A stretch of 64,000 bases of DNA from Nemertoderma westbladi (Eukaryota > Animalia > Xenacoelomorpha): the NCBI GenBank assembly GCA_032718475.1, contig JAUCBJ010004465.1, positions 12,864-76,863 on the forward strand, read 5' to 3'. Position numbers and translations under genes: made by a program. Position 1 is the stretch's first letter. Each line of letters begins with the position of its first letter. This document shows, one piece after another, positions 2,421-58,084 of this stretch. The notes beneath the pieces were generated by a model, which did no database searches, was not told the DNA's origin, and worked only from the letters and a program-made list of their open reading frames with translations.

Positions 2421-4131
2421 TGTGAGCGGATTCAATTCCGCCTCATTACCCCCATAAAGTTTGGAAGTGGCGCCTTTTTCAGCAATATTGGAGATACGAG
2501 ATTGATAACAACCAATCTCGTATCACACCCAATAACGGGGATAACTCATACCCCAAAAGCCACACAAAGGGAGGTTAGAGGTCAAACCACCTCGAGAGGG
2601 CAAGTAACCAACAGCGGGGGAGAACTACTACTACTACTACTAGGATCGGCATGCTGCATTGCAGCTGCATTTTTAAGAATGCTGTGCCGGCTTGTCAACA
2701 AAATTGCACCGCCACAACTCCCTATCACCCATGACATTTGCTAGATCATCCGCATCTTTAAGGCCAGTGTCCTTTAAGATGCGTCTCAAGAAAGTCATGG
2801 GCTGTCTACCATGCTTATTCACTCCATGAGGCTGCCAAAGTACAAGATTATGCACTGGCTGGTCCTCACGGCGAAAGCAATGTCCTGCAAAGCGGAGGCG
2901 ATTTTGTTCTAGTGTCAAGCTTGGGGGAACCAATGAGACACCTCCAATGTTATAGTGTCTGGTTGGAGATGTGTGCATTGTACTTGACACAATGTACCCG
3001 GCGTAGCATTCTTGTGAATGTGCCATCCAGAGATTTGGTGTCCTCAGCAGTTAGAGCCCAGCATGGACTCCCGTAGAGGAGTACTGGAACTACTGCTGCT
3101 CTAAATAATCGGACCTTAAGTTTCCGATTAATTCTAGGTGACTTCCAAATCCTGGAAAGCCTATTCAAGGCTGCCCATGCCTTTCCCTTACGTATTCGAA
3201 GGTCCTCACCTGACTTCCGGATCCATGATCCCAGGTAACAGAAGTCGTCCACATGCTCAAGCATACCATCCTTTGAGCTTATGCTCATCCGATCAGAGAC
3301 TTGCTGAGGACTTTCAAAGTTAACTGTCAGAATTTTGGTCTTTCTGGAGTTAATAAAAAGACCAACACTAGAAGCAGCATGTTCTAATGAGCTGAGGAGC
3401 CGCTGGGCTCCCTCTAATGATTCTGAGAGTACTCCTAAGTCATCAGCAAAGTCTAGATCAGTTAGGTACGTGGCAGGATTTCCTCGACTTCTGGAGCCAG
3501 TAGGTGGAGTTAACATCACCCCATCATCATTATGATGATCTAAGGACATGCGTAGAACATAGTCAACCACAATAATGAACAAGAATGGTGCAAGTGTGTC
3601 TCCTTGGAGGACGCCCCATAACACTTCAAATGGTTCTGTGTCACCATCAACAGTAGACACAAATGTTGTCGAACCATCGTATACTGATCTGATTGCTGCA
3701 ATAATTTCATCAGGAATCCCATATAATGAAAGTATGAAAGAAGCACTCCCACAGAGGTGAGATGCGTGAAGTAGGTTATGAGCCAGCGGGGGAGAGTATC
3801 CACTGGACAAAGGCCACAGTAGTGTACTAATTATACATATATTATCCTGCTACCGGTCAGTTAATCAGTTTACTCAGTCATTCAGTTCAGTGCAGACTGG
3901 TGATATCTTTTACCGTCACTGTCACCACATATCATCAATATTATCACTACTGGTACACTGGTATTATCGATATCATATTAACTGTGCTACTATTTACTAT
4001 TATTAATTTACTATACTATATTATCAATTATCGATCGAATATCAAGACGGTAACAACAAACTTTATATCATTTCAAATACCACAGTGACGCGTAATCTGA
4101 CAACCGGTCGGGATCCCTTGATCCCGTCACA
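2421..4131 (+). repeat. 5' LTR of element A, interrupted by an RTE insertion
   Basis: TGTGAGCGG...CCCGTCACA, near-identical to 34069-34667 once 2625-3738 is removed. Confidence 0.93.
2625..3738 (-). mobile_element. 5'-truncated RTE-like LINE (RT C-terminal half, frameshifted), (TAG)n tail
   Basis: RT motifs GVLQGDTLAPFLF, LDFADD and FCYLGS. (CTA)n tail on the + strand at 2625-2643. Absent from the 3' LTR. Possible short TSD AGAA. Confidence 0.9.
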
Positions 4132-4158
4132 GTAAAAGATATCCCAACACTATAAACT

Positions 4159-5712
4159 GTGACTGCCAGGAAAGATGAGCACAGGGCAACAAGGATTGTC
4201 GGAGGGAGAGAGGACACCGCCGCGGACCCCGGACGATACCAACCAAACGACCCGCGAGGCCGCGACGCAACGGTACCGACCTGCGACGCTGGATTCGCCG
4301 ACGAGAGACGATCTGGCAGTCTAAGTGGAGGGCGGCCGTCTACCACGAGAAAGGGACGAGTCGAGGCACGACGGCGGTCGAAGTACCGAAGTCGCCGGCC
4401 AGCCACAGGCCGAGGGTGATGGACGGCCCACCGGAACGGCGGCGGTGGGGCCGCCGGTACGATGCCGAACCAGGAGAGGAGGAGGAGATACGAAGAACGC
4501 CACAAAGAAACAGCTCAAGGAGGCCAGAGAGGGGGCGAAGGTAAACCAAGGGAAGTTGAGCCAGTGGCTAGGTGAGTCGAACAAACATTTCAGATATCTA
4601 GTCCGTTTTGGGCAGGGAGAACTGGCGAGTGAGAGAGCGAGGGGGGTCGTCACCGAACTATTCGAACTGTGGTGATCCGGGGTTATGGAGCGTGAAGTAG
4701 TGTACGTAGGGCTGTATTTAGTGGATGCTAGGGGAATTAAGTTAGTGGGTTGGGCAGATCCGCATGAGGGCGAACCCGAGGTTAACCCCGAGGATTCGGT
4801 CTCGTCGGTTAGTGAGAACCCCAGAAAGTGGGGGAAAGTTAGTAGGACAGGGAGGCAATGAGAGTCCGTCGCTACCGATAAGTCCGCTACATCCTCCACG
4901 AAAGCAAGAAGGGTGTTAGAAATAGATCTGGCGTGTCAATTAGACATGGTGGCGCTAGACCAGAAAGAATTAGAGAGGCAGTTGGATGAGGGAACTGCGC
5001 TGTTGGAGAAAGAGAGGGAGTTGGCGAGGTAGTGTAGAGAGAGGGACGAGAGGGTAGCGAGAAATTGTAGAGAACAAGAAGACAGAGAGGCAGAGGAACG
5101 TAAGGAGCAAGAAACGAGAGTAGAGGAGGAACGTAAGGAGCGAGAAACGAGAGTAGAGAAGGAACATAAGGAGCGAGAAACGAGGATAGAGGAGGAACGT
5201 AAAGAGTGAGAAACGAGAATAGAGGGGGAACATAAAGAGCGAGAAATGAGAGTGGAGAACGAGTGCAAAGAACGAGAAGTGAGAGAGGCAGCGAGGGTGG
5301 AGAGAGAAACAAATGAATATAGAGAGCGGGAGGCGAGAGTAGAGAGCGAACGTAGAGAGTGGGTGGTGAGAGAAACAGAGTTAGCGAACCAGAGTTTGCG
5401 AGAGAGAGAGCGGGAAAGCGCATGCGGGATGATACGCATGCCCGGTTGAGGGGGCTTATGCAATAACAGGCCAAACAGAAGCGCCGACTAGAACTGGCGC
5501 AGTTGGGACTATCAGAGAGTGAGGCTGGCTCGGGTAGTATTTACGAGGAGCCACAGGTTATGGAAATGTTTGTTAATACCCCACTTACAGGGACCGGGCG
5601 ACAAACCCAAGACTGGTGTAACCGTACGGGCAGGGGGGGGGGGGGGGGGTAATAACAATAAGTTAGAAGACGTTAATATTAATAGTACCGTAGTAGACAA
5701 CCCTAATCAAAC
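4159..5712 (+). pseudogene. Decayed N-terminal, coiled-coil-like part of element A gag; continues at 22604
   Basis: Broken R/E-rich ORF pieces homologous to element C 59826-61100. The sequence joins 22604 onward when element B is removed. Confidence 0.6.
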
Positions 5713-6887
5713 TGTTCGCGCTTTCAGACCTTTAGCAGTTTAACCTGCCAAATTTGGATGTCTTCTAGATTATAAATCGACTTTAGCCTATGACGAGTAT
5801 TTGATACACTACATTAGCCGAAGCCAGTCTATGCGCGACCATTCACCCGCTGGATATACCCGGGAGACTGGATTCGGAAGCTTTGACCTTATTGCGGTGT
5901 AGGCCTACTGTATTATTCGACTGATTGTTAATATCTAATTTCTGACCAATATTATTCACTTTCGGGAAATATTAACAGTTCCTTTAGGACGTGGCGCTCT
6001 AAATATGTAAACAGAGTTATGACTTACACTAGACACAACGGGATGGCTATTGGTTCACGTATAAAGCGCATTCTTTAGGAGATGCTTTGTTATCAGTCAC
6101 AATCATGCACACTACCGCACAATACTGCACACCGATCTGCCGACCTTCACTAATTTTAGTCACATATAAAGAGAACAGCAACCGACTCATGTAGTGCCTA
6201 TGAAATAGCATTACATTCACTCCAAAACCACTTTAATGTAAGTCGCAATTGTTATATGTAACCGGTCTCTTACCTTCAGTATATCAAGAAGATTGGGGGT
6301 TTTATAATTATTTATCGGTATTATCCAAATATAATAATATTCCATCAACTGATATAATTAATAACCGATAGTAAATAGCAGTAAAAATGCGGTGTTTGTA
6401 GTTGACAATATGATTTGACACACTGACTTGTGATTAGATAACAGTTATATGTTTCTATGACCAAAGCCTACTAATGTTTGGCTAAAGCCTGAAACACAGA
6501 AACTCCAAAGCCGGTCTTCTGGCTGTGGACAAAATACACATACTGACTGCATTGCATGAGTTTCTGTATACAATCTCCAACACAGAGTCAAAAAACGCTC
6601 TGATTGGTCGACCGAACAAAGAACGAACAAAGAACAAAGAAAAAGTTACACGTGTACATATCAGCTGTTAGATGTCGTCATGGTAACTACACTGTATCAA
6701 GAGGATTTTGGCTTATTGCGACATAAGATCTCTAGTTATGTCCGCTAAAGTACACATACAGAAGAAATGGCTTTTTATGTCCACTAAAACACCGGTACAG
6801 TAAGGAAACGGCTTTTTATGTCCGTTAAAACACCTACAGAGTACTTTGCGGGGAAAATAACTAGCTAGATCCGCAAAAGCCTTTACA
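5713..6887 (-). repeat. 3' LTR of element B (about 1175 bp)
   Basis: Direct repeat of 21426-22598; purine tract TGGGAGCGG adjoins it on the minus strand. Confidence 0.93.
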
Positions 6888-6965
6888 CCGCTCCCAGAAA
6901 ATGGGATTTAATTCTATAAAATATAAAAAATCACAGTTTCTAAAATATAAAAATACTCTAAACAG

Positions 6966-10151: not shown

Positions 10152-13100
10152 TTAAGTTGGGGAGTCCCTAGATGTTTGCTGGATTAGGGAGGTGGTCGTG
10201 GGAAGAGTATCTTGCCTTCCATAGTTTCCGGAGAGTTCTCTGTCTCTTTCCAATAAACATAAACGACCAACTGGGCGATTGAGCTGCTGTGTCTCGAAGA
10301 CAATTCCCGGTTTCTTGAAGTTACGTCGCATGACGACGAGTTCTACCGATCGCACCAAACCATCATCCGAGATGTGAGTCTCGATGATACGACCTGTCTG
10401 CCACCGCTTACGTGGAAGATCTGAATCCACAATAAGGACCATGTCTCCAGCGCTGACGTTTTCTTGCTGCGCAAACCACTTAGTTCGAAGTTGTAGCGTG
10501 GGCAGATAATGTTTTTCGAAATGGTCAGCGAAACGACGGGATAACAACTGCATAAGTTGCCAAGTTTGTCGGCAGTATTCGTCTCCGTCTGTGATTTCCG
10601 ATCGTGGGAGCATGGCTACAGGTTTCTTCAGTAGGAAGTGCGCGGGTGTTAGCGCTTCCAGGGAATCGGGACTCGAGGAGACTGGCATAAGCGGTCTCTC
10701 GTTGAGATAGGCATCGATTTCTTCCATTAACGTCTGCAAAAGTTCGTCGGTGAGATACGCGCGACAAGGCACTATAAAGTGAAATGTGGTTTTCACGCTC
10801 CTGATTAATCTCTCCCAACTTCCTCCCCACCAAAGGGCGTCGGCGGCGTTGAAGGTCCAGCTAGACGCTGTTACCCTTAGCTGATCGTCCACCTGTCTTT
10901 GGTTCCAATCTTTAACGTAAGTTTTGATTTCATTGTTAGCACCAATGAAGTTTGTTCCCTTATCAGATCTCATCGTGTTACTAGTTCCAAAGCGAGTGAT
11001 CTGTCGTCGTAAGCTCAATAGGAAGCTGTTGGTAGATAAATCGTTCACCATATCGAGATGGATAGCTCTACAAGTCATACAAACAAAGATGACACACCAT
11101 CTCTTGACTATAGTCCTAGCACGATATACTTCAATAGGGCCAAATAAATCTACACCTGTATTAGTAAAGGGTGGTTCATAGAAGCTTACTCGTTCCCTAG
11201 GTAATTCTGCCTCTCGCTGTGTTAAAGGCCTACTGAATGCTTTCCTACAGGGTATGCAGTTCCTAAGAACTTGGTTCAGAGCTCTACGGGGTTTATAAAA
11301 ATAATAGCGAGTTCAAATTTCGCTAAGAACTCGTTCTCTACCAGCATGATAAAGTTTGCTGTGAACATCTACAATCATCTTGATTTGTATTTCAAGATTT
11401 CTAATGAGTATGGGAAATTTAGTGTCAAAGGATAATGGAGCATTAGTTAATCTTCCTCCAACACGGATCAACCCATCTATCATTGTGCTAGAGAAACGAT
11501 CCCTTAAGCGCATCTGTGGATTTCTCAACAACAGGAAATACTTATCGGAATCCTCATAGCATTGCATGAGTCTCAGCATCTGCTTGTTGGTTTCTTCATG
11601 CTCCTGATAACTGATCTTCTCCTTCAGAAACCTGTCGGATATCTTATATTTGGGAAGATCTTTAACAACATGGACCTGCACAGATGTTAGTGGAGCGGTA
11701 TCACTATTGGTCTTCGCCCTGGAGTAGTGATGATGAAAACATCGCTTTAAATATGTAACGGCCTTACAGAGCCGATTCCAGGAACTGTAGTGATATATCG
11801 CTCTCTGCAGGAGAGGTGAGAGTCCTTGCGAGACATCTGGTATTCCAGATTTCCAATCCTTCTCTCTGATTTCTACAACAGACTTATTTGTGGCTGTGGG
11901 TTTCGGATCCAAAGCGTCGTCTCCGATAGTGTGTAGTACAGACAGATCTACCACGGGTTTAAATAACTTCGATTTACTCGCCCGAGTTTTAGGTTTGACT
12001 TTCTCCGCTCCCTTGGCCTGTCTAATCTCTGCCGTAATAAGATGAGGAGGCCATTCATCCTCTTCTTTGCTTAGGAAGTCGGGTCCACCTAACCAGTCTG
12101 GAGTATCTATCAGTTCTTGTGGAGTTGCTCCCCTGGAGGCGATGTCTGCTGGATTAATCGCTCCGGGGCAATGTCTCCATTGATCCATCTTCGTGCGACT
12201 AAGTATAATGGCTACTCTGTTGGTAACGAAGACGCTGAACTGACAGACTTCATTGATTATATACTCCAACACGAGTAAAGCATCGGTCCAATAGACAGTT
12301 TTCTCCAGTGGATAGTCGATCTGTTCTGTTACATTCCGGCCGATGGCTGTAGCGTATAAAGCCGCTTTTAACTCCGCTCGAGGAACTTTCAACTTGTTGT
12401 TTATCAATGCCTTAGAGGTAACCAAGGTGACTTTGATTCCATCCGGAGTTTCCACTCTTAGGTAGGCTACTATACCTATTCCCATATCGCTGGCGTCTCC
12501 AAACATATGGAGTTGATAGGAATACGTAGGGAGAACATGACCAAAATATGAACGGGAAATTATAAAGTTCTCAATGGCTGGTAGAGAATCTTCCCATTTC
12601 ATTCACTTCTTTAATAATTCTCCCTTAAGTGGATCGTCCCATGAGTGGTTTTCAAGCCACATTTGTTGTACTAAACTCCGAGCAATCAATATAACTGGGC
12701 TAATAATTCCCAATGGATCGAAATAAGTGCTCAGGATACTTAAACAAATCCGTTTAGTCCGAACTGGATTATCTCGCTGTTTTAGCTGGAAAAACAGGAT
12801 ATCTCTCTCTGTGTCCCATTTCAAACCAAGTGTCTTGGTTTCTGGAAGATCATCTTTGATTAGGACTAGGTCTTTCGCTCCTCGATCTTCTACCGGGATC
12901 GATTCCAGAAACTCACGGGAGTTGCTGGTGAATTTAGTTAATCGAAATCCACCTCTTTTTAAGCACTCTACCGTTCCTTTGGCGACATCAATGGCTTCTT
13001 CCACAGATGGAATGGACTTTAAATTGTCGTCCATGTATATATCCCGTTTGATGTTGTCGATCACCTCTTTTGAGAAGGCTTCCCGGTTGTCATCAGCAGT

Positions 13101-14644
13101 GGTGCGCACCACTGAGCAGGCGTTTGAAGGGCTTGAGATGATCCCAAAAGCCTGGATGGTCATCCAATACTCCACCGGTTTCTGGTTGAGGTCTCCTTCA
13201 GGCCACCACAGAAATCGTAGGCTATCTCGATCCCTATCCAGCGCCTTGACTTGTAAGAACATGCCTTCTATATCGGAGGCGAAAGCGATTGAATATTGTC
13301 GTAATCTTAAGAGTATTCCCAACAAGGATTGGAGTAAGTTGGGTCCTGGTAACAACTCGGAATTAAGGGATTGGCCCATGTAGAGGGCGGAGCCATCAAA
13401 TACTACTCGTACCTCATGGGGTTTCCCGGGTTTGGGAACGTAATGATGTGTTAAATAGTACGTTCTCTCAGTTAGGGGTTTTCCTTCCGGTACTCGCTCC
13501 GCATATCCCTTGTTAATAAATTTCTTCAACTGAGTCTGATACATTTCTTTAGCTGAAGCATTTGCCGTAAGGCGTCGATGTAGTTGAGCAATTCTTTTCT
13601 CCGCCAAGGGTCGGTTGTTTATGAATTTTGGTTCTCGCTTTCGGAATGGGAGACCGATTTCATATCTACCTTGATCTTTAAGAAAACGTGTAGTTGTCTC
13701 CTGGATCTGCTTGGCTCTTTCTTCTTCTACCGATAGGGCCTTATCGTAGGAATTGGGCTCTACAGCCTCTTGAGTAAAGAATCGTACGGCGTGTTCATCT
13801 CGAGTTTTCGCGTTATATCTCTCGATTACGTCATTCAGTTCGTCGTTATAGTCGACTTGTCCTGATGGACGAATGACTTGACATAGGTTCACTTGGTTTT
13901 GCCAAGTCTCGTTTTCCGTAAGGATATCGATGGTATTCTCCTCGTCGAAGAGCTGGTGTATATCGTCATTATCTGAGGAGTATGGTGTTCCCTCAGTTGG
14001 GTCGTCAACTTCACTGCTCTCCACTTCCCATTCACTTAATTGATATACCTGTTCTTTTGGTAATCTTTCCATGAGAGTTCTACGTGAAGGGCCAGTAAAG
14101 TACCAACCTACTCTAGTTCTTCCCGCATAGACTTGTAATGGTTGCGGTTGAGCAGGCCGTTTCTCTAATGTCTCAAGCGCTTCATGCGCATTTTGGCCGA
14201 TGAGTATTTGCACTCCGGGGTAATCTGTGTTGAATCTAGGTATATTAAGCTGCTGGGTGGAATCGTCCTCATCCCAGTTATAAGGTTCTACTTGGCTGGT
14301 AGCGAAGTTCTTTATCTCTACCATTTTTACTGACCTTATACTATGTTCTCCTAGTTCATCCTGGGGGGTGGACAACGCACCTACATAATAATCCGCTATT
14401 ACTGTAGATTTCCAAACCTGCATAATTCCTGACATGTTTAACTTAGTTCGGAACTTGGGTTGTCCAGCAAAGATGTCTTCGGCTAGTTCTTTGTCGATGG
14501 ATGTTCCTGTGCTACCGGAGTCAAGGAGGGCGTTCACTATATAACTCCTTTTAGGTCCGTGGACCCTCAACTGTACTACGGGAAATTCTCGGATTCCTAC
14601 ATTGGAAGTTGGTGCTTTCCAAGATGGTTGTCGGTCAGAAGTAG
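10152..14644 (-). pseudogene. Element B pol: protease, RT, Pao RNase H and integrase, with stops
   Basis: LLDSGS protease, YMDD RT, HMFGDASD/YWTD/NPADIASRG RNase H, and SDKGTNF/WERLIRSVK/LTPAHFL integrase motifs. Confidence 0.93.
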
Positions 14645-17600
14645 TTAGGAGAGCTCGCTGTCTGTGTCTTTTTCATACGTAAGTGCTCGATACACTGCGG
14701 TATTTATCAGGTAACAGGATTCGTTTTCATCGGAGAATTCGTCCGTATAGAATCCTTCCATCTCAGAACTTTGGTCTGTGTTGTTCACATCACTGAATTG
14801 GACATGTAGTTCGGAATCACTTACCTGACTCGGGCTGTTTCGTTCGAATTCAGTGTGCAACAAGAGATGATGTTTTGCGCCGCACTTCGCACACCTTGCG
14901 TCTGAGTAACAGGTTCGCCGTTGGTGTCCTTGTCTGAGGCAATTATAACACAACCGCTTATCCCACATGACTTCCCGTCTATCCTTTAATGATTTCTTTA
15001 GGAATTCATCACACACATTCAAACGGTGGGTCCCGTCACATAGCGCACATTTCGGTTTGATATTACTTACCTTATTTTGATTAACGTTGTGCACACTCGT
15101 TCTTTCTTCGGGCTTTCTTACCTGAATTCTCTTAGGAGACGTAAGAGGAGTTTTTCTTACCTGTTCTCTCCTGTCATTGGTTCGAGACTTTAATTTACTT
15201 ACGTCTTTAGGCGTTTTATTGACATAATAAGATCTTTCAGTGTCTTTCCCGCTGTCTTCTTCTTGAGAAGCCTGGCTTTCGCCGTCGTCGGTATAACACA
15301 CTGGTGTTACCTTTCTCCTAGAAACGGGTTTCTCACTTACCTTGTTTTCCGGTGTCTTCTCTCTGGACTGCTTTAGGAGCTGTAATTTCACTTCTCCATC
15401 TAAGAATGACATGAGATCAGCCATGGTAGGGTCTCGTCGTTGTTGTTCCATCATATATAACACTTTCTTATACAGCTCCAATAACCATAGAACTCTGATA
15501 TTCATGAGACTTACCTAGCCAATCTAATTGTCTACAGATCTCTTGAATCTCATCGGAAAACTCTATAATCCCGCTGCTAATGAACTTTCTGGGGGCTACC
15601 AATTTTGCATACAAATACCTAGCTATGTTATTCCTATTACCATACCTGATGTTTAGTGTATCCCAAACTTGTCTTAATCCATCTGGATGTCCAATAAACT
15701 TTAACGCCATTAACTTGGGAGATCCTTCCAAGCACTCAATGAGGAATCTAAGTTTCTCTCCGTTAGATAGCACAGAGTTCTGTATGTTATCTTTGTAATA
15801 TTCATTAAAAGGTAACCATTTCATCTCATCTCCATTGAACTTGACGATCTCTCCCACCTTTACCGCTTGACGGGCTTCGGTTCTAGCCATTTGACGCGTA
15901 AAACTTTCTTGGGCCATCGTGTTATTTAATATCGAGTTATCGGTATATAAATTTCTTGGATTATTATCAAGTCTATATGGAATATCATTGTCAACAGGTT
16001 TATAATTACCCTTAATAGGGTTTACTATAGGAGTTTCCACTTCACTAGCAGTATAGATGCATGTAGGCTCCACACCTTGCGCATGAAATACTTCAGACCT
16101 AACAGGTTGACACATTGTTACAGGGGGTGGAGGTATACCCTTTTGTGTATTTACTAATTTATCGCGTTCTAATGCGATACTCTGCTGCACTTCTTGCAAC
16201 TCTAACCTACTTTCCCTTACTGTTCCTTTAAACTGATGAACAGTCTCCTGCATCTGCCCGAGCAGGAGATTCATCCCCCGCCGCCCCTCATCCACCCACT
16301 CGACCGCCGAAGCGGGAGCCACCAACGTAGTAGCGGGTAGACGAGGGACAACGGGCGACAAATCATTGATCTTTTGCTCGGAGTCCAGGACAGGAACTGT
16401 CTCAGGGGTTGTTTTGTGGGGCACAGGTAGTTTAGTGCTGTGTAAAGGGAATTTAGAGGTAGGTTCTGGGAGTACAGGTGTCTCTATCACCGAAAGGGTG
16501 GCTTCGAGAACAGGCCTAATTATTTCAGGCTCATCTACTATAGTAGGGAGTCTTTCTATTTTAATTATTTGGTCTGTGGGTTCTATACTACCTAAGTCTG
16601 TGTTAGTTAGTTGCCTTCTAACAGCTGGGGGCAAATCAGGCAATTTCTGACGGTGGGACATTCTTCTACGCCTACTTAGACGAGATCTATTTCCTCCGCC
16701 TTCAGGATCGGTGGTATCGCCTTCATCAGATGATGTAAATCCCTGCCTTTTGGGAGTAGATCGACTCATCATCTGCATTTGACTAGCTGTTAACTGTTTA
16801 TTTATGCAGTCTTGATTCTCTTGAATATTTTCCAACTCTAGTTGGGTGGTCTCTTCAGATGCTCTTCGTTCTGCTTCTGCCACTGCTATCTTTCTTTCCG
16901 CTTCTGCCGCTGCTGCTTTTGCCTCTGCCGCTGCCTCTGCCGCCTTTCTTTCCGCTTCTGCCACTGCCATTGCCGCTGCTGCTGTCTTTCTGTCTTCTAT
17001 ACGTTTTTTCTTGACTTGTTCTTCTTGGACCCTAGCGATGCGGAGCCTTTCATCAAATTTAGCTTGGTTCGCAGCTATCATATCCGCATTGATTGCATCT
17101 AACACAAGCTTGGCTCCTTCACTATTAGGGCTAAGTCCAGACAGCCGTCTCCTCAACTCTTCGTCACCTACAAATCGTTGATAGTCTGACAGATAGATGT
17201 CAATAGCATCCCTCTTATGCGGTTTCTCAGCTGTCGCCTCACTTTCCACTTGGGAAAAGGTAGCGTCTGTTGATTCTCCATGGGTTGAGCGCTCAGCCAG
17301 CCGAACTTTCCACTGGGCCGTTCCTTGAACCTGGAGACTCACCCGCTGGAACCAAGTCTTTACAGCAACTTGCAACGACGTGTCTTGTCTTCTTTTCGAA
17401 GCTTCCTCAAAGGCCGATAGGATTAGTCTGATTCTTAGAATTCTTTCTCGAACTTGATAAAGCAGCTCTCCCTGCTCTTGGGGTCCTTGGGGTTGTCGAA
17501 ACAGTTGTTCTTCTAATCGCTCCAAAGAGCTAAAGAATCCCTGTACGTATCCTGCTGCTGACCTCTTCCATACAGCTGGATCACTGGTGTCTTTTGTTAC

Positions 17601-18161
17601 TCCCATCCTGTGTATGTCTTCCCAGGCAGCTTCCGATAAGTCAAACGGGAGTCCGGGTCTGGCGAAGTTCCATTGCGACTCGACAATAGACTTCAGTTCT
17701 TCCCTTGTATATCCCGCATAACTATCCTTGGTCGATCGCTTACTTCTCGCCCAATCAATCTGGTGTTCCTCCACCGCAATCAATACCCTAGTGAGTACGG
17801 CTGCAGGAAGGATGAGAAGGGGATCCGAATAAACCGCATCTGCCATCTTTGCTCCGCGCTCGGGTGTCAGCTCTACAGTATCCGCACTACTGGAGCTGTC
17901 GGGCCGCTGAGAAATAAGTTCTCGGCTCGAGTGTTGCTGCTGTTCTGCTGCTTCTTGGTCCCGCTTGACCTGAGCTCGAGTGCCTATGATAGACCTATGG
18001 TGTTGGACCAGCCTAGGGTCTGATACTACTACTGGAGGGATGATTTTTCTTACAGTAGGAGGTGAATTGAACTTCGGTCTCACACGTTCCACACTCCTGT
18101 CTGGGTCACAGATGGTTGTATCTAGGAGACTGTCTGACAGGTTTTGCTTTGTGTCAGACAT
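14645..18161 (-). pseudogene. Element B gag (897-aa ORF plus frameshifted zinc-knuckle part)
   Basis: Pao gag core (KFNGDEMKWLPF...EKLRFLIECLEG) and three Cys/His knuckles: CALCDGTHRLNVC, CYNCLRQGHQRRTC, CAKCGAKHHLLLH. Confidence 0.9.
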
Positions 18162-18294
18162 GTTTGTTTGTACAGTTGAATGCCTACTGCTATATTACAG
18201 TTAAAGCAAGTCTAGTAATTCAGTATCAACTGTTAGCCTAGTAATTAATTACCGATACTGTTACTCAGTGTAACGTGATATATATATATAATAT

Positions 18295-20202: not shown

Positions 20203-20552
20203 GTACAATCTGAGCAGGCTTACACGCCTTCTGCTCAATATTGGCCTACAAATAAATAAAACTGACAGAAATAAGTAAAATCCCAATAAAAAACCAGGGC
20301 GGGCCCACCCTGATTAAATATTAAGGCCTACCGGTATATAATTATCAAATCGAATAATACTACTGTACCTGTACTGCTGTAAGTACCGGTCCGGGTGGTT
20401 AGGAAGTCAGGCCTACTAGGTACCGGTTGACCGGTACTTCAGCTTTATTGCCTACGTTGCAATACAGAAGCAATAACTGTTATTGTTCTTACCAGAACAA
20501 TATTAAACTGTATTTATTGCCTACACTGCAATCAGAAGATTATAACTGTTAT

Positions 20553-20775
20553 TGTTCGCGCTTTCAGACCTTTAGCAGTTTAACCTGCCAAATTTGGATG
20601 TCTTCTAGATTATAAATCGACTTTAGCCTATGACGAGTATTTGATACACTACATTAGCCGAAGCCAGTCTATGCGCGACCATTCACCCACTGGATATACC
20701 CGGGAGACTGGATTCGGAAGCTTTGACCTTATTGCGGTGTAGGCCTACTGTATTATTCGACTGATTGTTAATATC
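20553..20775 (-). repeat. Extra 223-bp copy of the element B LTR U5 end
   Basis: Matches 5713-5935 with one visible mismatch. Confidence 0.92.
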
Positions 20776-20936
20776 AACAACATCCGACAACGACGGCGGC
20801 CTATGAGCTAAGTAGCAAAGGTGAACGGACACTAACACTACTACAGTAGGCCTGCTACACTCTACTGTTGTACTGATACTAGCTAATAAATGGGTTGCTA
20901 AGCAACCTTGAAGATGGTTGCTAAGCAATCGAATCT

Positions 20937-21362
20937 CATGCCAACTACACACACATGCCAAATACACATATGCCAACTACACACACATGCCAACTACACA
21001 CACATGCCAACTACACACACGTGCCAACTACACACATATGCCAACTACACATGCCAACTACACACACATGCCAACTACACACACATGCCAACTACACACA
21101 CGTGCCAACTACACACATATGCCAACTACACATGCCAACTACACACACATGCCAACTACACACATGCCAACAACACACGTGCCAACTACACACACATGCC
21201 AACTACACACACATGCCAACTACACACACATGCCAACTACACACACGTGCCAACTACACACACATGCCAACTACACATGCCAACTACACACACATGCCAA
21301 CTACACACATATGCCAACTACACACACGTGCCAACTACACACATGTGCCAACTACACACACA
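20937..21362 (+). repeat. Minisatellite TGCCAACTA(CA)n, about 15-19-bp units
   Basis: Directly visible. Confidence 0.95.
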
Positions 21363-21425
21363 TAAAAAATCAGATTTTATGTGTAAAGTTGACTGGCACT
21401 TGTGGGCTTCCGTAAGTATCTGAGG

Positions 21426-22598
21426 TGTTTGCGCTTTTAAGACCTTTGACAGTTTAACCTGCCAAATTAGGATGTCTTTTAGATGATAGATAGTCTTTAG
21501 CCTATGACGAGTATTTGATACACTACATTAGCCGAAGCCAGTCTATGCGCAATCATTCACCCGCTGGATATACCCGGGAGACTGAATTCGGAAGCTTAAT
21601 GATTGATGGTGTAAGCCTACTGTATTATTCGACTGATCGCAATATATAATCTCTGACAAATATTATTCACTTTCGGGAAATATTAACAGTTCCTTTAGGA
21701 TGTGGCGCTCTAAATATGTAAACAGAGTTATGACTTACACTAGACACAATGGGATGGCTATTGGTTCACGTATAAAGCGCATTCTTTAGGAGATGCTTTG
21801 TTATCAGTCACAATCATGCACACTACCGCACAATGCTGCACACCGATCTGCCGACCTTCACTAATTTTAGTCACATATAAAGAGAACAGCAATCGACTCA
21901 TGTAGTGCCTATGAAATAGCATTAGATTCACTCCAAAACCACTTTAATGTAAGTCGCAATTGTTATATGTAACCGGTCTCTTACCTTCAGTATATCAAGA
22001 AGATTGGGGGTTTTATAATTATTTATCGGTATTATCCAAATATAATAATATTCCATCAACTGATATAATTAATAACCGATAGTAAATAGCAGTAAAAATG
22101 CAGTGTTTGTAGTTGACAATATGATTTGACACACTGACTTGTGATTAGATAACAGTTATACGTTTCTATGACCAAAGCCTACTAATGTTTGGCTAAAGCC
22201 TGAAACACAGAAACTCCAAAGCCGGTCTTCTGGCTGTGGACAAAATACACATACTGACTGCATTGCATGAGTTTCTGTATACAATCTCCAACACAGAGTC
22301 AAAAAACGCTCTGATTTGTCGACCGAACAAAGAACGAACAAAGAACAAAGAAAAAGTTACACGTGTACATATCAGCTGTTAGATGTCGTCATGGTAACTA
22401 CACTGTATCAAGAGGATTTTGGCTTATTGCGACATAAGATCGCTAGTTATGTCCGCTAAAGTACACATACAGAAGAAATGGCTTTTTATGTCCACTAAAA
22501 CACCGGTACAGTAAGGAAACGGCTTTTTATGTCCGTTAAAACACCTACAGAGTACTTTGCGGGGAAAATAACTAGCTAGATCCGCAAAAGCCTTTACA
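21426..22598 (-). repeat. 5' LTR of element B; the first 230 bp or so are diverged
   Basis: Aligns with 5713-6887. Confidence 0.9.
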
Positions 22599-22603
22599 CA
22601 AAC

Positions 22604-30235: not shown

Positions 30236-30738
30236 GTGAGAAGTGAGGGGGGCACGTGGGTACAGCAGGACAGACCGTGTATGCCGCACGAGACATACTA
30301 CTGTAACGCACAGCCCGTAGAGTAGGTCAGAATGTTTGATACAGGGCCAGGAGGTTACCTGGTGCAGACTAGCACAGTAAGGAGTAGCTGGTCCATCCTG
30401 TATACAAACCATAGGGGTTATTAAAATACCTATAATCTATTATAGGTATTGATAGCACAGTTATAGAATTAAAATTAATATAAAAAGAATCAAAATTCGA
30501 CAAATTATAGCAACAGTAGGTAAAATGTTCTAGAAGATAATAAAAGTAGACAAATTTAGGGAATTTAGGAAAATTTAGTACTTTAGGGGGTAAAATAGGG
30601 AAAATATAACACATAATCTAGCGTTCTGAGAGAGATAGGCAATTATCGGACCATACAGACCATCCTAACTACATCACTCACTTATATTGAGCCTTGGCAA
30701 GGCACCACCTTATAGGTGAGCGATCGGGAGCATTTGAA

Positions 30739-33300
30739 ATGGCGGAGAAACTTGTTAGAAAGAGAAAGGCGGAAATGGGTGGAAAGGAGATACTAGTAGA
30801 CTTCACCGAGAGGCATCCAGAGGAGAAGACGGGGGGATACTACGAGCGGTTAGAAAAGGGTCACAAGGCGCGAACGCTGCAGGACCATTTCAGAGAGGTG
30901 CACGAGAGGCGACTGGTCGGGACCTACAGGACGCCGTCGCTAGACAACGCGATCCTCGAGCATTTCCACTACGTGGTGAAGGGAGACGAGGCGAAGTTCG
31001 GGATACCAAAGTATCCGAGGGAACCACCGATAAAGGACTGGAAGAGGTTCGTAGAGTACGTCAGCAGGGGAGGATACATGGTCCTAGACGACAAAGGGAC
31101 CGTGGAAGACGACGAGGGTTCGAGGAGAGGGTCGGCGGGGTTGGCCAGAACCATACTTCTGCATTTGGCTGCGCCAAATGGGGACATATTCCTGTTCGAT
31201 CTGGGAACATATGGGAAGAAGAATGGGCCGAAGTTAAACCGGTTGCCAAGGGCGGTGCATAACATAGTAAGAGAGAAGTCGATGATAAAGGTGGGATCGG
31301 CGATCCGCAACGATGCGGAGAGTATCATCGATCCGGAGACCCCCAACCTCCTGGACATGCAAATGGTCTACATGGCTATGACAGGGCCAGCAGGGTTGGG
31401 ATTAGTAGAAAACATAGGACATTGTGGAGCGGTTGCGATGGGCCAGCTAATGGGGCTCGTCTGCCACAAGCCAATGGACTGGGGTAAATTCAGGGAGGAG
31501 TACGGAGCGGAGTTGGCGAACTCGCTGAAGTGGGGAGCGAGGCCGGGGAAACAGGAGGTGTATCAATTCCGGAGAGGAGCGATAAAGATATATCAGAAGC
31601 GATATATCCTGCAGGAGGATTGGATAATGATAGGTTTACTAAACCTATTCATGGCCATGGTTATCGAAAGAGAGCCAACGGCGTTTCTGCTATCGGGATC
31701 ACCCCTGAACTACAGAAGAGCCTTCAAAGTGGCTTTCGAGGGTCCAGTAGACCACCCGGGGCTGAAGGGCGAGTCGGTATACTACAACTGCCGATATCTA
31801 GTAGACAGGGAGGTGGATACACCATATCAGAGGTGGGAGAAGCTAGAGGCGGATAGACAAGAGGAGAAGCGATTGGAAGAAATCGCTAGACGAGAAAGGA
31901 TGGATGCAGATGAAAGAGAGGCGGAAGATAGAGGAGAGGGCTACGGGTTCGACGCCCAGGCCTTGGACGATTTACAGTGGGCATCAGGGAGCTCAGGCGA
32001 GTCTCTGGGGCGAGAGTTGGGGTGGACAGAAGGATCGCTGAAACAGTCGACATCGGGATTGCAGACGACGCCCATGCCAGCGGGCGCCGAGGGCGATTTC
32101 GCGAAGAGAAGGCCAGGGGAACTGGAAGGATGGAAAGTCACGGGCGAGAGCCAAGGTGGGAAGGGACACTGTGGGTCTACCGGGATACCGGGTTTGGAGC
32201 CACTCCCAGCGGAGGATGAGGATGACGACGAGTTCGGAGAGATGCCGCCCATCGGGAGAATCGGCCACTCAGACACGGACTGTGTTGGCGGGAGAGTGGT
32301 GATGGCCAGCGGGGCGAGGGCTTTCTGGGATAAACCCAGCAAGTGGGCCTGGGTGCATGAGGAGCCGGCGATGGATTTCGCGGGGAGCACCATCAGGTTG
32401 GGCGAGCAACCGGGAATGGCACCACGGGTAGTATTCGGAGAGACGATGCCCAGGCGAGACGAGGACATAGACGTGGACAGAGACGTTAACGTCCAGAAGT
32501 TTGCTTACCAGCGGCTCCATAGACCGAGGAGATCGCTTGGGGTGAAGGACGACTTGGGGCGGGACGCGTTGGTACTCGGCTGCGATTACTGTGGGAGGCT
32601 TACTCACCAGGAAAGGAGCTGCTTGTATCGATTCCAGAAGGGGACAAGCTGCCTCTACTGCCGCGAGTCGAGTCATAGGATGGGAGAGTGTCCACGGTTG
32701 CACAAACGGTGTTCTAAGTGCAACTTCCGGGGGCACTATGGATGCCAGTGCGACTGGATGGACGACGAGGAGAAGTTTAAGATCTTCGAGGAGTGGGCCG
32801 ATGTCGGCGTCATGACGCGGCAGCGGATGAAGGCCCAGGAATTCCGGTGGGGTTTCTTTAATATTAACAAGGAGGCCCACCTGGAAATCATCAAACGGAG
32901 GTTTCCTTTTACTTATCAAGAAGTATCAATGGCAGCATCGTATGCGGGAGTGATGAATACACAGAGGTATTTAGACAGATGGGCACCAGAGAACCGAGGA
33001 GAGTTCAGAGATTTCCTGGCGGAGCATGTGCCACGGGCCAGGAAGGTGATCCTATGGGACGCCACTAGGGGGAAGCAGCAGGGGCATTCAGAGGGGCCAC
33101 CTGCGAAGCGATACCGGGAGCTAATAACAACAGCGCCCAAGGAATCGACGACGGGAATCAGTAGGGAAGTAACAGCAAGGATGAGGAACCTTAAGGAGGA
33201 GAAGGGCAAGGGAGCGGCGACAACCAGGAAGCGACCGAGACAAGACGACGACAGAGGGAAGGAACTGAGATGGTTCCCAAAGACAGGAGGAGCGAACTAG
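30739..33300 (+). CDS. Element A ORF3, about 853 aa from the first ATG: DEDDy/WRN-like 3'-5' exonuclease domain plus three CCHC zinc knuckles
   Basis: Uninterrupted ORF. Motifs YMVLDDKG, LLHLAAPNGDIFLFDL, LPRAVHNIVREKSMIKVGSAIRND and QKRYILQED resemble ExoI/II/III. Three CX2CX4HX4C motifs at 32581-32751. The domain call is by eye. Confidence 0.72.
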   Translation: MAEKLVRKRKAEMGGKEILVDFTERHPEEKTGGYYERLEKGHKARTLQDHFREVHERRLVGTYRTPSLDNAILEHFHYVVKGDEAKFGIPKYPREPPIKDWKRFVEYVSRGGYMVLDDKGTVEDDEGSRRGSAGLARTILLHLAAPNGDIFLFDLGTYGKKNGPKLNRLPRAVHNIVREKSMIKVGSAIRNDAESIIDPETPNLLDMQMVYMAMTGPAGLGLVENIGHCGAVAMGQLMGLVCHKPMDWGKFREEYGAELANSLKWGARPGKQEVYQFRRGAIKIYQKRYILQEDWIMIGLLNLFMAMVIEREPTAFLLSGSPLNYRRAFKVAFEGPVDHPGLKGESVYYNCRYLVDREVDTPYQRWEKLEADRQEEKRLEEIARRERMDADEREAEDRGEGYGFDAQALDDLQWASGSSGESLGRELGWTEGSLKQSTSGLQTTPMPAGAEGDFAKRRPGELEGWKVTGESQGGKGHCGSTGIPGLEPLPAEDEDDDEFGEMPPIGRIGHSDTDCVGGRVVMASGARAFWDKPSKWAWVHEEPAMDFAGSTIRLGEQPGMAPRVVFGETMPRRDEDIDVDRDVNVQKFAYQRLHRPRRSLGVKDDLGRDALVLGCDYCGRLTHQERSCLYRFQKGTSCLYCRESSHRMGECPRLHKRCSKCNFRGHYGCQCDWMDDEEKFKIFEEWADVGVMTRQRMKAQEFRWGFFNINKEAHLEIIKRRFPFTYQEVSMAASYAGVMNTQRYLDRWAPENRGEFRDFLAEHVPRARKVILWDATRGKQQGHSEGPPAKRYRELITTAPKESTTGISREVTARMRNLKEEKGKGAATTRKRPRQDDDRGKELRWFPKTGGAN

Positions 33301-34068: not shown

Positions 34069-34667
34069 TGTGAGCGGATTCAATTCCGCCTCATTACCCC
34101 CATAAAGTTGGGAAGTGGCGCCTTTTTCAGCAATATTGGAGATACGAGATTGATAACAACCAATCTCGTATCACACCAATAACGGGGATAACACATACCC
34201 CAAAAGCCACACAAAGGGAGGTTAGAGGTCAAACCACCTCGAGAGGGCCAGTAACCAACAGCGGGGGGGGGGGGGGGGGAAGCACTCCCACAGAGGTGAG
34301 AGGCGTGAAGTAGGTTATGAGCCAATGAGAGCGGGGGAGAGTATCCACTGGACAAAGGCCACAGTAGTGTACTAATTATACATATATTATCCTGCTACCG
34401 GTCAGTTAATCAGTTTACTCAGTCATTCAGTTCAGTGCAGACCGGTGATATCTTTTACCGTCACCGTCACCGTCACCACATATCATCAATATTATCACTA
34501 CCGGTACACTGGTATTATCAATATCATATTAACTGTGCTACTATTTACTATTCATATTATCAATTATCGATCGAATATCAAGACGGTAACAACAAACTTT
34601 ATATCATTTCAAATACCACGGTGACGCGTAATCTGACAACCGGTCGGGATCCCTTGATCCCGTCACA
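34069..34667 (+). repeat. 3' LTR of element A (about 600 bp)
   Basis: Follows the PPT, ends in CA, and is followed by the TSD. Confidence 0.95.
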
Positions 34668-36090
34668 ACTTCCGGTTCACAGGTACTGAATTGAATCCGA
34701 CTTCTGGTACACAGATACTGCATTGAATCATACTTCCGGTTCACAGGCACTGCATTGAATCCTACTTCCGGTACACAGGTACTGCATTGAATCCTACTTC
34801 CGGTACACAGGTACTGCATTGAATACTACTTCCGGTTCACAGGTACTGCATTGAATCCTACTTCCGGTACACAGGTACTGCATTGAGTCCTACTTCCGGT
34901 TCACAGGTACTGCATTGAATCCTACCTCCGGTACACAGGAACTGAATTGAATCCTACTTCCGGTTCATAGGTACTGCATTGAATCATACTTATGGTATAC
35001 AGGTACTGTACTGCATTGAATCCTACTTCCGGTACACAGATACTGCATTGAATCCTACTTCCGGTACACAGGTACTGCATTGAATCATACTTCCGGTATA
35101 CAGGTACTGTACTGTATTGAATCCCACTTCCGGAACACATGTACTGCATTGAATCCTACTTCCGGTACACAGGTACTGCATTGAATCCTACTTCCGGTTC
35201 ACAGCTACTGCATTGAACCCTACTTCCGGTTCACAGGTACTGCATTGAATCATACTTCCGGTACACAGGTACTGCATTGAATCCTACTTCCGGTACACAG
35301 GTACTGCATTGAATCCTACTTCCGGTACACAGGCACTTCATTGAATCCTACTTCCGGTTCATAGGTACTGCATTGAATCATACTTCTGGTATACAGGTAC
35401 TGTACTGCATTGAATCCTACTTCCGGTACACAGGTACTGCATTGAATCCTACTTCCGGTACACAGGTACTGCATTGAATCCTACTTCCGGTTCACAGGTA
35501 CTGAATTGAATCCTACTTCTGGTACACAGATACTGCATTGAATCATACTTCCGGTTCACAGGCACTGCATTGAATCCTACTTTCGGTACACAGGTACTGC
35601 ATTGAATCCTACTTCCGGTACACAGGTACTGCATTGAATCCTACTTCCGGTACACAGGTACTGCATTGAATCCTACTTCCGGTTCACAGGTACTGAATTG
35701 AATCCTACTTCTGGTACACAGATACTGCATTGAATCATACTTCAGGTTCACAGGCACTGCATTGAATCCTACTTCCGGTACACAGATACTGCATTGAATC
35801 CTACTTCCGGTACACAGGTACTGCATTGAATCATACTTCCGGTATACAGGTACTGTACTGTATTGAATCCTTCTTCCGGAACACATGTACTGCATTGAAT
35901 CCTACTTCCGGTACACAGGTACTGCATTGAATCCTACTTCCGGTACACAGCTACTGCATTGAACCCTACTTCCGGTTCACAGGTACTGCATTGAATCATA
36001 CTTCCGGTACACAGGTACTGCATTGAATCCTACTTCCGGTACACAGCTACTGCATTGAATCCTACTTCCGGTTCACAGGTACTGCATTGA
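34668..36090 (+). repeat. 32-bp minisatellite, right part, about 44 units; the last unit overlaps the exon start
   Basis: Same unit as 1391-2420. Confidence 0.97.
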
Positions 36091-38939: not shown

Positions 38940-41900
38940 AAATTGTTAAGTTCTGAAGACCCTGATCTAATAGCGATACTTTCCTTACATTTGTTACGTT
39001 CTGAAGACCCTGATCTAATAGCGATAATTTCCTTACATTTGTTAAGTTCTGATGACCCTGATCTAATAGCGATAATTTCCTTACATTTTTTAAGTTCTGA
39101 AGACCCTGATCTAATAGCGATAATTTCCTTACATTTGTTACGTTCTGAAGACCCTGATCTAATAGCGATAATTTCCTTACATTTGTTACGTTCTGAAGAC
39201 CCTGATCTAATAGCGATAATTTCCTTACATTTGTTACGTTCTGAAGACCCTGATCTAATAGCGATAATTTCTTTACATTTGTTACGTTCTGAAGACCCTG
39301 ATCTAATAGCGATAATTTCTTTACATTTGTTACGTTCTGAAGACCCTGATCTAATAGCGATAATTTCCTTACATTTGTTACGTTCTGAAGACCCTGATCT
39401 AATAGCGATAATTTCCTTACATTTGTTACGTTCTGAAGACCCTGATCTAATAGCGATAATTTCCTTACATTTGTTACGTTCTGAAGACCCTGATCTAATA
39501 GCGATAATTTCCTTACATTTGTTAAGTTCTGAAGACCCTGATCTAATAGCGATAATTTCCTTACATTTGTTAAGTTCTGAAGACCCTGATCTAATAGCGA
39601 TAATTTCCTTACATTTGTTAAGTTCTGAAGACCCTGATCTAATAGCGATAATTTCTTTACATTTGTTACGTTCTGAAGACCCTGATGTAATAGCGATAAT
39701 TTCCTTACATTTGTTACGTTCTGAAGACCCTGATCTAATAGCGATAATTTCCTTACATTTGTTAAGTTCTGGTAGACCCTGATCTAATAGCGATAATTTC
39801 CTTACATTTGTTACGTTCTGAAGACCCTGATCTAATAGCGATAATTTCTTTACATTTGTTAAGTTCTGAAGACCCTGATCTAATAGCGATAATTTCCCTA
39901 CATTTGTTAAGTTCTGAAGACCCTGATCTAATAGCGATAATTTCCTTACATTTGTTACGTTCTGAAGACCCTGATCTAATAGCGATAATTTCTTTACATT
40001 TGTTAAGTTCTGAAGACCCTGATCTAATAGCGATAATTTCTTTACATTTGTTAAGTTCTGAAGACCCTGATCTAATAGCGATAATTTCCTTACATTTGTT
40101 ACTTTCTGAAGACCCTGGTCTAATAGCGATAATTTCCTTACATTTGTTAAGTTCTGAAGACCCTGATCTAATAGCGATAATTTCCTTACATTTGTTAAGT
40201 TCTGAAGACCCTGATCTAATAGCGATAATTTCCTTACATTTGTTACGTTCTGAAGACCCTGATCTAATAGCGATAATTTCTTTACATTTGTTAAGTTCTG
40301 AAGACCCTGATCTAATAGCGATAATTTCCCTACATTTGTTAAGTTCTGAAGACCCTGATCTAATAGCGATAATTTCCTTACATTTGTTACGTTCTGAAGA
40401 CCCTGATCTAATAGCGATAATTTCCTTACATTTGTTACGTTCTGAAGACCCTGGTCTAATAGCGATAATTTCCTTACATTTGTTAAGTTCTGATGACCCT
40501 GATCTAATAGCGATAATTTCTTTACATTTGTTACGTTCTGAAGACCCTGATGTAATAGCGATAATTTCCTTACATTTGTTACGTTCTGAAGACCCTGATC
40601 TAATAGAGATAATTTCCTTACATTTGTTAAGTTCTGAAGACCCTGATCTAATAGCGATAATTTCCTTACATTTGTTACGTTCTGAAGACCCTGATCTAAT
40701 AGCGATAATTTCCTTACATTTGTTACGTTCTGAAGACCCTGATCTAATAGCGATAATTTCCTTACATTTGTTACGTTCTGAAGACCCTGATCTAATAGCG
40801 ATAATTTCTTTACATTTGTTACGTTCTGAAGACCCTGATCTAATAGCGATAATTTCCTTACATTTGTTACGTTCTGAAGACCCTGATCTAATAGCGATAA
40901 TTTCTCTACATTTGTTAAGTTCTGAAGACCCTGATCTAATAGCGATAATTTCTTTACATTTGTTAAGTTCTGATGACCCTGATCTAATAGCGATAATTTC
41001 CTTACATTTGTTACGTTCTGAAGACCCTGATCTAATAGCGATAATTTCCCTACATTTGTTAAGTTCTGAAGACCCTGATCTAATAGCGATAATTTCCTTA
41101 CATTTGTTAAGTTCTGAAGACCCTGATCTAATAGCGATAATTTCTTTACATTTGTTAAGTTCTGAAGACCCTGATCTAATAGCGATAATTTCTTTACATT
41201 TGTTACGTTCTGAAGACCCTGATCTAATAGCGATAATTTCTTTACATTTGTTACGTTCTGAAGACCCTGATCTAATAGCGATAATTTCTCTACATTTGTT
41301 AAGTTCTGAAGACCCTGATCTAATAGCGATAATTTCCTTACATTTGTTAAGTTCTGAAGACCCTGATCTAATAGCGATAATTTCCTTACATTTGTTAAGT
41401 TCTGAAGACCCTGATCTAATAGCGATAATTTCCTTACATTTGTTAAGTTCTGAAGACCCTGATCTAATAGCGATAATTTCCTTACATTTGTTAAGTTCTG
41501 AAGACCCTGATCTAATAGCGATAATTTCCTTACATTTGTTACGTTCTGAAGACCCTGATCTAATAGCGATAATTTCTCTACATTTGTTAAGTTCTGAAGA
41601 CCCTGATCTAATAGCGATAATTTCTTTACATTTGTTAAGTTCTGATGACCCTGATCTAATAGCGATAATTTCCTTACATTTGTTACGTTCTGAAGACCCT
41701 GATCTAATAGCGATAATTTCTCTACATTTGTTAAGTTCTGAAGACCCTGATCTAATAGCGATAATTTCTTTACATTTGTTAAGTTCTGATGACCCTGATC
41801 TAATAGCGATAATTTCCTTACATTTGTTACGTTCTGAAGACCCTGATCTAATAGCGATAATTTCCCTACATTTGTTAAGTTCTGAAGACCCTGATCTAAT

Positions 41901-57000: not shown

Positions 57001-58084
57001 CGGGATGTCCTTAATAAGTCCAGTCAGTTCTTCATAAAACCTGACTGCTTGTTCTGGCTCTGATGCATTGGTTGGACTGTAGCAACATATAACTGTTGTC
57101 TTGGGATTCCCATCAAATGTTGCGATCATAACCCTGGAATTTATAGATTCGATGTTGTTTAGGGTCTTAAGTGCAAATGGGCTTAGCAGAATTCCTACTC
57201 CACCAATTGATGCATTGGCCGAGTTTCTTACTGCTGAGCTTGTTACTAACGTCCATCCATTTCCAATGTCATTGTACTTCATGGCAGTGCCTTCATGACA
57301 AATCCGATGTTCTTGAATGCAGATGATGTCGATGTTATATTCCGTGCTTTCAGCGTGCGTGCGTTCATTGTAGCAATCTTTAGTGTCGTTTTACATTTCA
57401 ACAGGTTGGTTCTTCTTTCTTCTCTGTCTTCTGTTCCAGTAGCCAATTTATCGACCCTAGCCTGGTGTACCACTGAGGGACGCGGTCCTTGTTGACCCGG
57501 GCGACGACCGAGCCGGTATTTCTCCTGGAGGGTTCTCATACTCATATCTTTCAGTTGCGGGAGTAAACCGCTTGTGGTCGCAACTCCTACAAGCGTCTTC
57601 GCAGTAGATCGCCGTTGGTTGATTACCTTCCGCCGACCTTGTCAGCATGTCTAGCCGTTGGTTGATTACCTTCCGCCTATCCATGGCCTACAGCCCTGCT
57701 GCCGACTGTAGGGATCCTTTTGTTACACCCTGAACCAAGTGTGCCTCCTGGGTTAGGTTACCTAACACTGGTAGAGGAGCATCCAGTATAGACAGGACGG
57801 GGCGTGTATAGTATAATCTCTAATGCAGATGCGTATCAAGCCTTTGCCTTCAATGGTGCCCTAGGTGCTATCAATGACTTATTTAGTTGACGGGGCTAAA
57901 CCAACCCACTCTTTATCAACTAAATAATGAATAGGCTATGCTTATCGGGCCTTCCCTACTGGGCTGACAGCTACAGGTAGTACCACATTACTGCCATAGT
58001 GGTAGCAGGATCTGGGGACCTGACCTGACCTGAGTGACGAGTTATTAAACTTTAAAACCGGATCAAATTTATTGGGACACCCTG
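54011..58084 (+). mobile_element. Tc1/mariner-family DNA transposon remnant
   Basis: Perfect 51-bp TIRs at 54011-54061 and 58034-58084, TA on both flanks, and a transposase N-terminus MFTDEQRVFIVKTYY at about 54310. Confidence 0.9.
54588..58033 (-). mobile_element. Chimeric RTE-like LINE (endonuclease plus RT, frameshifted)
   Basis: APE motifs (CCYSPT, GDLNAQ, QLDYIL), RT motifs (QNGFRPRRST, KAFDSIHR, DFADD) and a (TAG)n tail. The last 650 bp or so are near-identical to 2633-3285. Confidence 0.9.

Follow-up and report, generated by a model that had tools for sequence, protein, structure and literature searches.

The window (the whole 64,000-nt stretch of DNA that was analyzed) contains three BEL/Pao-type elements, referred to here as A, B, and C. 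Element B lies on the - strand, is nested in the leader of A, and is bounded by CAAAC target-site copies. The parts of the three elements are listed by window position, with the strand in parentheses.

2421-4131 and 34069-34667 (+): 599-nt LTRs of element A, the 5' copy being split by a LINE piece
start at 59214: element C, similar to A
5708-5712 and 22599-22603: target-site duplication of B, 5 bp, CAAAC
5713-6887 (-): 3' LTR of B, 1175 nt, TG...CA
6888-6895 (-): polypurine tract of B, adjoining the 3' LTR
10152-18194 (-): gag-pol of B, broken, with DUF1759, protease, RT, Pao RNase H region, and DUF5641
20553-20775 (-): true 3' end (U5 side) of the B 5' LTR, identical to the 3' LTR at 222/223 positions (99.6%)
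20776-21650 (-): insert in the B 5' LTR, consisting of a diverged LTR end (21426 to ~21650, 88%) and then ~650 nt of unrelated DNA, which includes a short tandem repeat
21651-22598 (-): 5' part of the B 5' LTR, ~950 nt, 98.8% identical to the 3' LTR

By its predicted proteins, B is of the BEL/Pao type. Matches to DUF1759, Peptidase_A17, and DUF5641 exceeded the cutoff; the protease and RT matches were weak (E values of 0.04 and 0.08) and were placed in the expected PR-RT-RH-IN order, and the best homologs of the B proteins contain PF05380. The structural hallmarks of BEL/Pao elements, namely, TG...CA LTRs, a target-site duplication, and a polypurine tract, are likewise present. In-frame stops near 12605 and 11315 interrupt gag-pol, and this copy of B is therefore broken. 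Its 5' LTR is in two pieces with ~870 nt inserted between them, probably through a repair event that copied off another locus, and the true LTR/leader junction is at 20553/20552. Contigs from public sequencing runs (see below) showed that the subfamily with the insert's type of LTR end has a junction variant of its own. A search of the window for tRNA genes with ARAGORN found none, and two subthreshold Rfam matches to miRNAs in gag were taken as chance.

Element A is itself embedded in a 32-nt minisatellite (1391-2420 and 34668-36090), and an 11.3-kb array with a 48-nt unit occupies positions 38943-50233. Pieces of one LINE family (RT, endonuclease) lie at 2635-3739, inside the 5' LTR of A, and at 54588-57390. 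Between its pol and its 3' LTR, A carries an 869-aa open frame (30691-33300, +) with Cys/His-rich motifs in the last third; this frame yielded no Pfam match at E values up to 1 and has no counterpart in B.

Complementarity between leader and LTR in B, A, and C

The + strand carries the 12-mer ATAACAGTTATA twice, at 6438 and 22149; the - strand has it at 20552-20541, right after the LTR end at 20553. The bases at the primer-binding position of B are thus complementary to a segment of its own LTR. The segments concerned, together with their counterparts in A and C and the neighboring features of the B leader and U5 side, are as follows.

20541-20552 (-): 12 nt at the primer-binding position of B, complementary to LTR 439-450; no TGG
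22149-22160 (-): candidate self-primer segment in the B 5' LTR, its 3' end being the limit of the conserved block among copies
6438-6449 (-): counterpart of this candidate segment in the B 3' LTR, LTR 439-450
20472-20488 (-): second copy of the LTR end plus 12-mer (11/12), which begins a duplicated ~70-nt unit in the leader
20495-20502 (-): 8-nt inverted copy of the junction, predicted to pair locally and skipped in some copies
~20571-20592 (-): predicted 8-bp hairpin in the U5 side of B
3902-3913 (+): LTR segment of A, the complement of the 12 nt that follow its 5' LTR (4132-4143)
59556-59564 (+): LTR segment of C, the complement of the 9 nt that follow its 5' LTR (59762-59770)

An earlier reading of this DNA from its sequence alone (here, the sequence-only reading) had reported the 12-nt LTR/leader complementarity of B, and we found it to be exact and correctly located. 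Pairing also ends at the LTR boundary as that reading had claimed, since the next pair would set C against the last A of the LTR. Its estimate of the chance of such a match, roughly 1e-4, was a few-fold too low: when the 1175-nt LTR was dinucleotide shuffled 20,000 times, a match as good arose 12 times (6e-4; analytic value, 3.5e-4), and the chance rises to a few per thousand if several offsets are allowed. No TGG occurs within the first 58 bases of the B leader, the first one being at base 59. Because the 12-mer is nearly palindromic, it is also a 10/11 direct repeat of the LTR site; its central base is in the complementary orientation.

Elements A and C share the trait, with letters other than those of B. 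The flush complement is 12 nt long in A (1 of 20,000 shuffles) and 9 nt long in C (58 of 20,000 shuffles). When A and C are compared, both sides of the duplex have changed at the homologous place and the pairing has been kept.

We also examined the 8-bp stem that the sequence-only reading had drawn between the junction (20550-20557) and the leader (20495-20502) of B. The complementary sequence is indeed present, but in the predicted fold 20495-20502 pairs with the second junction copy at 20472-20488 and not with the junction itself, and contigs in two of the runs (X1 and X3) skip the stem partner altogether. The corresponding junction/leader stem is present in the predicted folds of A and C, and each of the three elements has a predicted U5 hairpin.

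Several minor observations were made on the LTRs. The two LTRs of A (3914-3930 and 34459-34480) differ by a single 6-nt repeat unit that adjoins the end of the paired 12-mer; the extra unit is similar to the end of the same LTR. In A and C (34440-34470 and 59547-59570), a short local hairpin, recognized by eye, could mask the paired segment and might act as a switch. The B LTR has two pyrimidine-rich splice-acceptor-like sites at 22199 and 22234 (-), ~40 and 75 nt upstream of the paired segment, with no GTRAG donor upstream of either.

Relatives outside the window and further copies of B

A profile search returned 79 loci on metagenome contigs and 16 on genome contigs; this sample was picked by similarity to the Pol of B and is not a survey of all BEL/Pao elements. 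Fifteen elements representing 14 families (L084 and L088 are sisters) were counted, with the LTR end set by a direct repeat with diverging flanks. The other 80 of the 95 loci were not counted separately because the LTR end was undefined or the family had already been counted. Among viral contigs, no relatives were found. Loci L080 to L095 are on contigs from bacterial genome bins that carry animal-type BEL/Pao elements, which likely reflects host contamination.

A self-complement of 10 to 15 nt, beginning 0 to 3 bases past the LTR end, was present in 11 of the 15 outside elements, and the same statistic in 216 other leader windows reached a maximum of 8. For 10 of the 15, the pairing (11 to 15 nt) runs across a GTRAG...AG junction in the LTR, where splicing is predicted from the sequence only. 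The splice rule was tightened midway through the analysis; the loose rule selected the same ten elements but let 10 of the 216 null windows reach at least 10 nt. A single element, L010, has a contiguous flush complement (10 nt). Two further fits were post hoc, a contiguous 11-nt complement at offset 4 in L087 and a spliced one of 10/11 in L080. Elements L048 and L055, classed by their early TGG, show no self-complement, and L029 and L007 have a TGG 12 to 14 bases past the LTR in addition to a spliced complement. A scan that ignored LTR boundaries and took 10-nt complements following any CA was also tried and was dropped, its matches being mostly chance. In L010 (682-1122), the 10-nt complement extends with bulges over ~40 more bases (24 of 1,000 shuffles were as stable).

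From the recurrence of the same geometry with a different sequence, the sequence-only reading had proposed a shared mechanism, to be abandoned if matches were no commoner than in shuffled controls. The matches of A, B, and C exceed those of shuffles, and the 11 of 15 outside elements stand against a null maximum of 8; both results support a shared mechanism. The geometry itself recurs less strictly than was proposed, as the complement is flush in only 3 of the 11 outside cases and is set off by 1 to 3 spacer bases in the others.

Six public runs contain the stretch or part of it. None is recorded as RNA; one of them, X5, is from another organism and may be DNA. Many variant copies of B are found in the run contigs. 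Two B-family junction variants (one contig each) start as that of B does, lack TGG, and differ from it at 2 and 4 of the 12 positions, and a related junction in X5 is likewise without TGG. Intact copies of B with a normal tRNA PBS, which the sequence-only reading had named as evidence against itself, were not seen among these junction variants.

The contig pieces aligned to B carry 1 to 6 differences. An unplanned result was that 19 of 21 pieces among those listed (157 further pieces exist) start at 22147-22149, in three DNA runs. Summed depth across these positions rose from 3,583 to 71,067 in X1, from 1,398 to 56,091 in X3, and from 54 to 290 in X4, an increase of ~5- to 40-fold in contig depth, which is not copy number. 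A longer alignment of the X1 contigs agrees, with a depth of 394 at 22130-22135 versus 80,997 at 22163. The block conserved across B copies stops at the 3' end (RNA sense) of the 12-mer, and the piece starts and the depth jump thus place its end at the predicted cut position (see below). This edge of conservation is compatible with a cut site but is no proof of one.

Candidate self-priming and alternative readings

Element B carries at its primer-binding position a complement to its own LTR and no TGG, and the same trait occurs in A, in C, and in most of the sampled relatives. On these grounds, we consider it probable that the family of B primes reverse transcription with its own RNA rather than with a tRNA, in a Tf1-like manner and from the 5' copy of the segment. 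Transcription would start upstream of LTR 439, and the segment at 439-450 of the 5' copy would pair with the 12 bases past the LTR. The RNA would then be cut at the 3' end of the segment, at about LTR 450, as RNase H does in Tf1, and extension of the new 3' end would begin at the first base of the LTR end. In contrast to Tf1, the segment may sit tens of bases into the RNA. Elements B, A, and C would represent intron-less forms, and most relatives are predicted to assemble the trait by splicing an intron out of the LTR.

Promoter signals bear on where the segment would lie in the RNA. No TATA box was found 23 to 40 nt upstream of the segment in B. In A and C, the best TATA is 68 to 70 nt upstream of the segment, which would put the start ~40 nt further upstream and give a primer of about 47 to 50 nt. 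A start at the paired segment fits only 2 of 16 elements, L029 and L088, with a TATA 28 to 31 nt upstream. We also searched A, B, C, and L010 for the two flanking duplexes of the Tf1 type, and the longest helices were no better than those of shuffles (37 to 193 of 200 were as long). Extension of the duplex beyond its core in A, B, and C was not significant (190 to 252 of 1,000 shuffles were as low).

The absence of these flanking duplexes would also suit a pairing that is real but structural, serving packaging, dimer formation, or a translation switch, with a tRNA fragment or another host RNA as the primer. The competing junction/leader stem predicted in A and C points the same way, as does the TGG that L029 and L007 have besides their spliced complements. 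We nevertheless regard a purely structural role as unlikely, since the pairing begins 0 to 4 bases from the LTR end in every case, is missing from the two elements with an early TGG, and uses letters that vary widely among families, which a single host primer would not permit.

Self-priming might instead proceed from the 3'-terminal LTR copy, with the RNA 3' end formed or cut at LTR 450. The segment is present in both LTRs, no promoter signal puts it at the RNA start in B, and 6 of the 15 outside elements have AATAAA past the paired segment. The B LTR, however, is without AATAAA, its nearest ATTAAA being 200 nt downstream of the segment, and the TATA boxes of L029 and L088 place the start at the paired segment, so use of the 3' copy also appears improbable. 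Least credible, despite the 10/11 direct-repeat match to the LTR site, the further copy at 20472, and the chance of a few per thousand once a few offsets are allowed, is that the match in B comes from a near-palindromic motif that recurs as a protein site or dimer signal, or from coincidence, and is unrelated to A and C, given the complementary orientation of the central base, the flush position, the occurrence of the trait with unrelated letters in A, C, and 11 of 15 outside elements, and the termination of the conserved block at the segment.

Self-priming from the 5' copy could also be cast more broadly, and here we are tentative. A large marine branch of BEL/Pao might have given up tRNA priming. 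Most of its members would splice an LTR intron to build the primer, with host splicing gating replication, and the intron-less B, A, and C would obtain theirs, longer and capped, by a cut within the 5' end of the RNA. The variable stretch immediately following the 12-mer would then mark the site of the cut and of strand transfer.

Comparison with known systems and phylogenetic placement

In Tf1, the RNA's initial 11 bases are paired with the PBS, and RNase H makes its cut between bases 11 and 12 (PMC7175516, available portions), and the priming complex is a three-duplex structure (PMC10085805, available portions). B resembles Tf1, Tf2, and Tj1 and the Tf1/sushi group (Ty3/gypsy chromoviruses), as described in the available text of PMC7175516, PMC4600332, and PMC10085805, in that the bases past its 5' LTR are complementary to 11 to 12 nt of its own LTR and there is no tRNA site. 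It differs from Tf1/sushi elements in its BEL/Pao proteins and the absence of a chromodomain match, and from Tf1 in that the flanking "pretzel" duplexes were not found and the segment may lie inside the RNA rather than at its first bases; most of its relatives differ further in needing a predicted splice to form the segment.

Where their text is available, PMC6317226, PMC4600332, PMC7175516, and PMC10085805 present self-priming as a described trait of Tf1/sushi and as a predicted one of Tcn1 and TAR/Houba elements. The prediction for TAR/Houba/Osr-1 (Ty1/copia) and plant Tcn1 used a complementarity of at least 10 bp that starts 0 to 5 bp past the 5' LTR, a sequence test that B passes (PMC6317226, available portions). 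Those elements are from other superfamilies and from plants, and the accessible part of that source describes no splice-built primer for them. Fungal GalEa copia elements, like B, have no tRNA site and have a palindromic sequence right past the LTR; their partner sequence is downstream in the leader, with no LTR complement found, whereas that of B is inside the LTR (PMC5445492, in the part available).

The ICTV profile of Belpaoviridae describes tRNA priming and an 18-nt site that is the complement of a tRNA-Arg or tRNA-Gly 3' end, and it regards BEL/Pao replication as poorly understood (PMC8742986). B agrees with this profile in its LTRs, its polypurine tract, and its gag-pol domains and their order; it departs from it in lacking the 18-nt tRNA-Arg/tRNA-Gly site, the first TGG lying as far in as leader base 59. 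The available text of three BEL/Pao papers (PMC554778, PMC6238403, and PMC3118150) does not use "PBS" or "tRNA," and that of PMC2774666 does not use "PBS" or "priming." We found no report of BEL/Pao self-priming in the partly accessible literature that was searched; subscription journals, Repbase reports, and supplements lay outside its scope and may mention it.

The feature of B is real and is likely a novel form of an established mechanism, found here in a superfamily whose published description is of tRNA priming. The C. elegans BEL element Cer7 is said to encode its own tRNA-like primer. Tests of self-priming have so far been confined to the yeast element Tf1, with predictions for some gypsy and copia groups; should B and its relatives prime themselves, theirs would be a third LTR superfamily with this solution. 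Self-priming would explain the many BEL/Pao elements without a recognizable tRNA site and would make such elements independent of the tRNA supply. Being high copy and needing no splicing, B offers a useful case in which the start, the cut, and the primer could be mapped directly in host RNA.

The closest proteins to those of B have at most ~46% identity over substantial alignments. The Pol proteins of A (degraded) and B are 28 to 29% identical, at the low end of the 26 to 39% range of similarity between superfamilies given in the available text of PMC3118150. A mixture-model tree contained a group (SH-aLRT, 93) that united B with every self-complementary outside element sampled and with two fluke proteins; A and the TGG pair (L048 and L055) lay outside this group. 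Schistosoma and Dicrocoelium proteins belong to the group, in a tree from which references for the named BEL/Pao clades (Sinbad/Sailor, Suzu, Pao, BEL, Tas, Dan, and Flow) are absent. A and B are long branches, and the position of B shifts between trees; under simpler models, B fell outside the TGG pair. The AU test rejected neither a grouping of A with B (P = 0.14) nor a single clade of all self-complementary elements (P = 0.19). The shared BEL/Pao clade that had been suggested for A and B is thus compatible with the AU test, but the two elements stand apart in the tree and their Pol proteins are distant.
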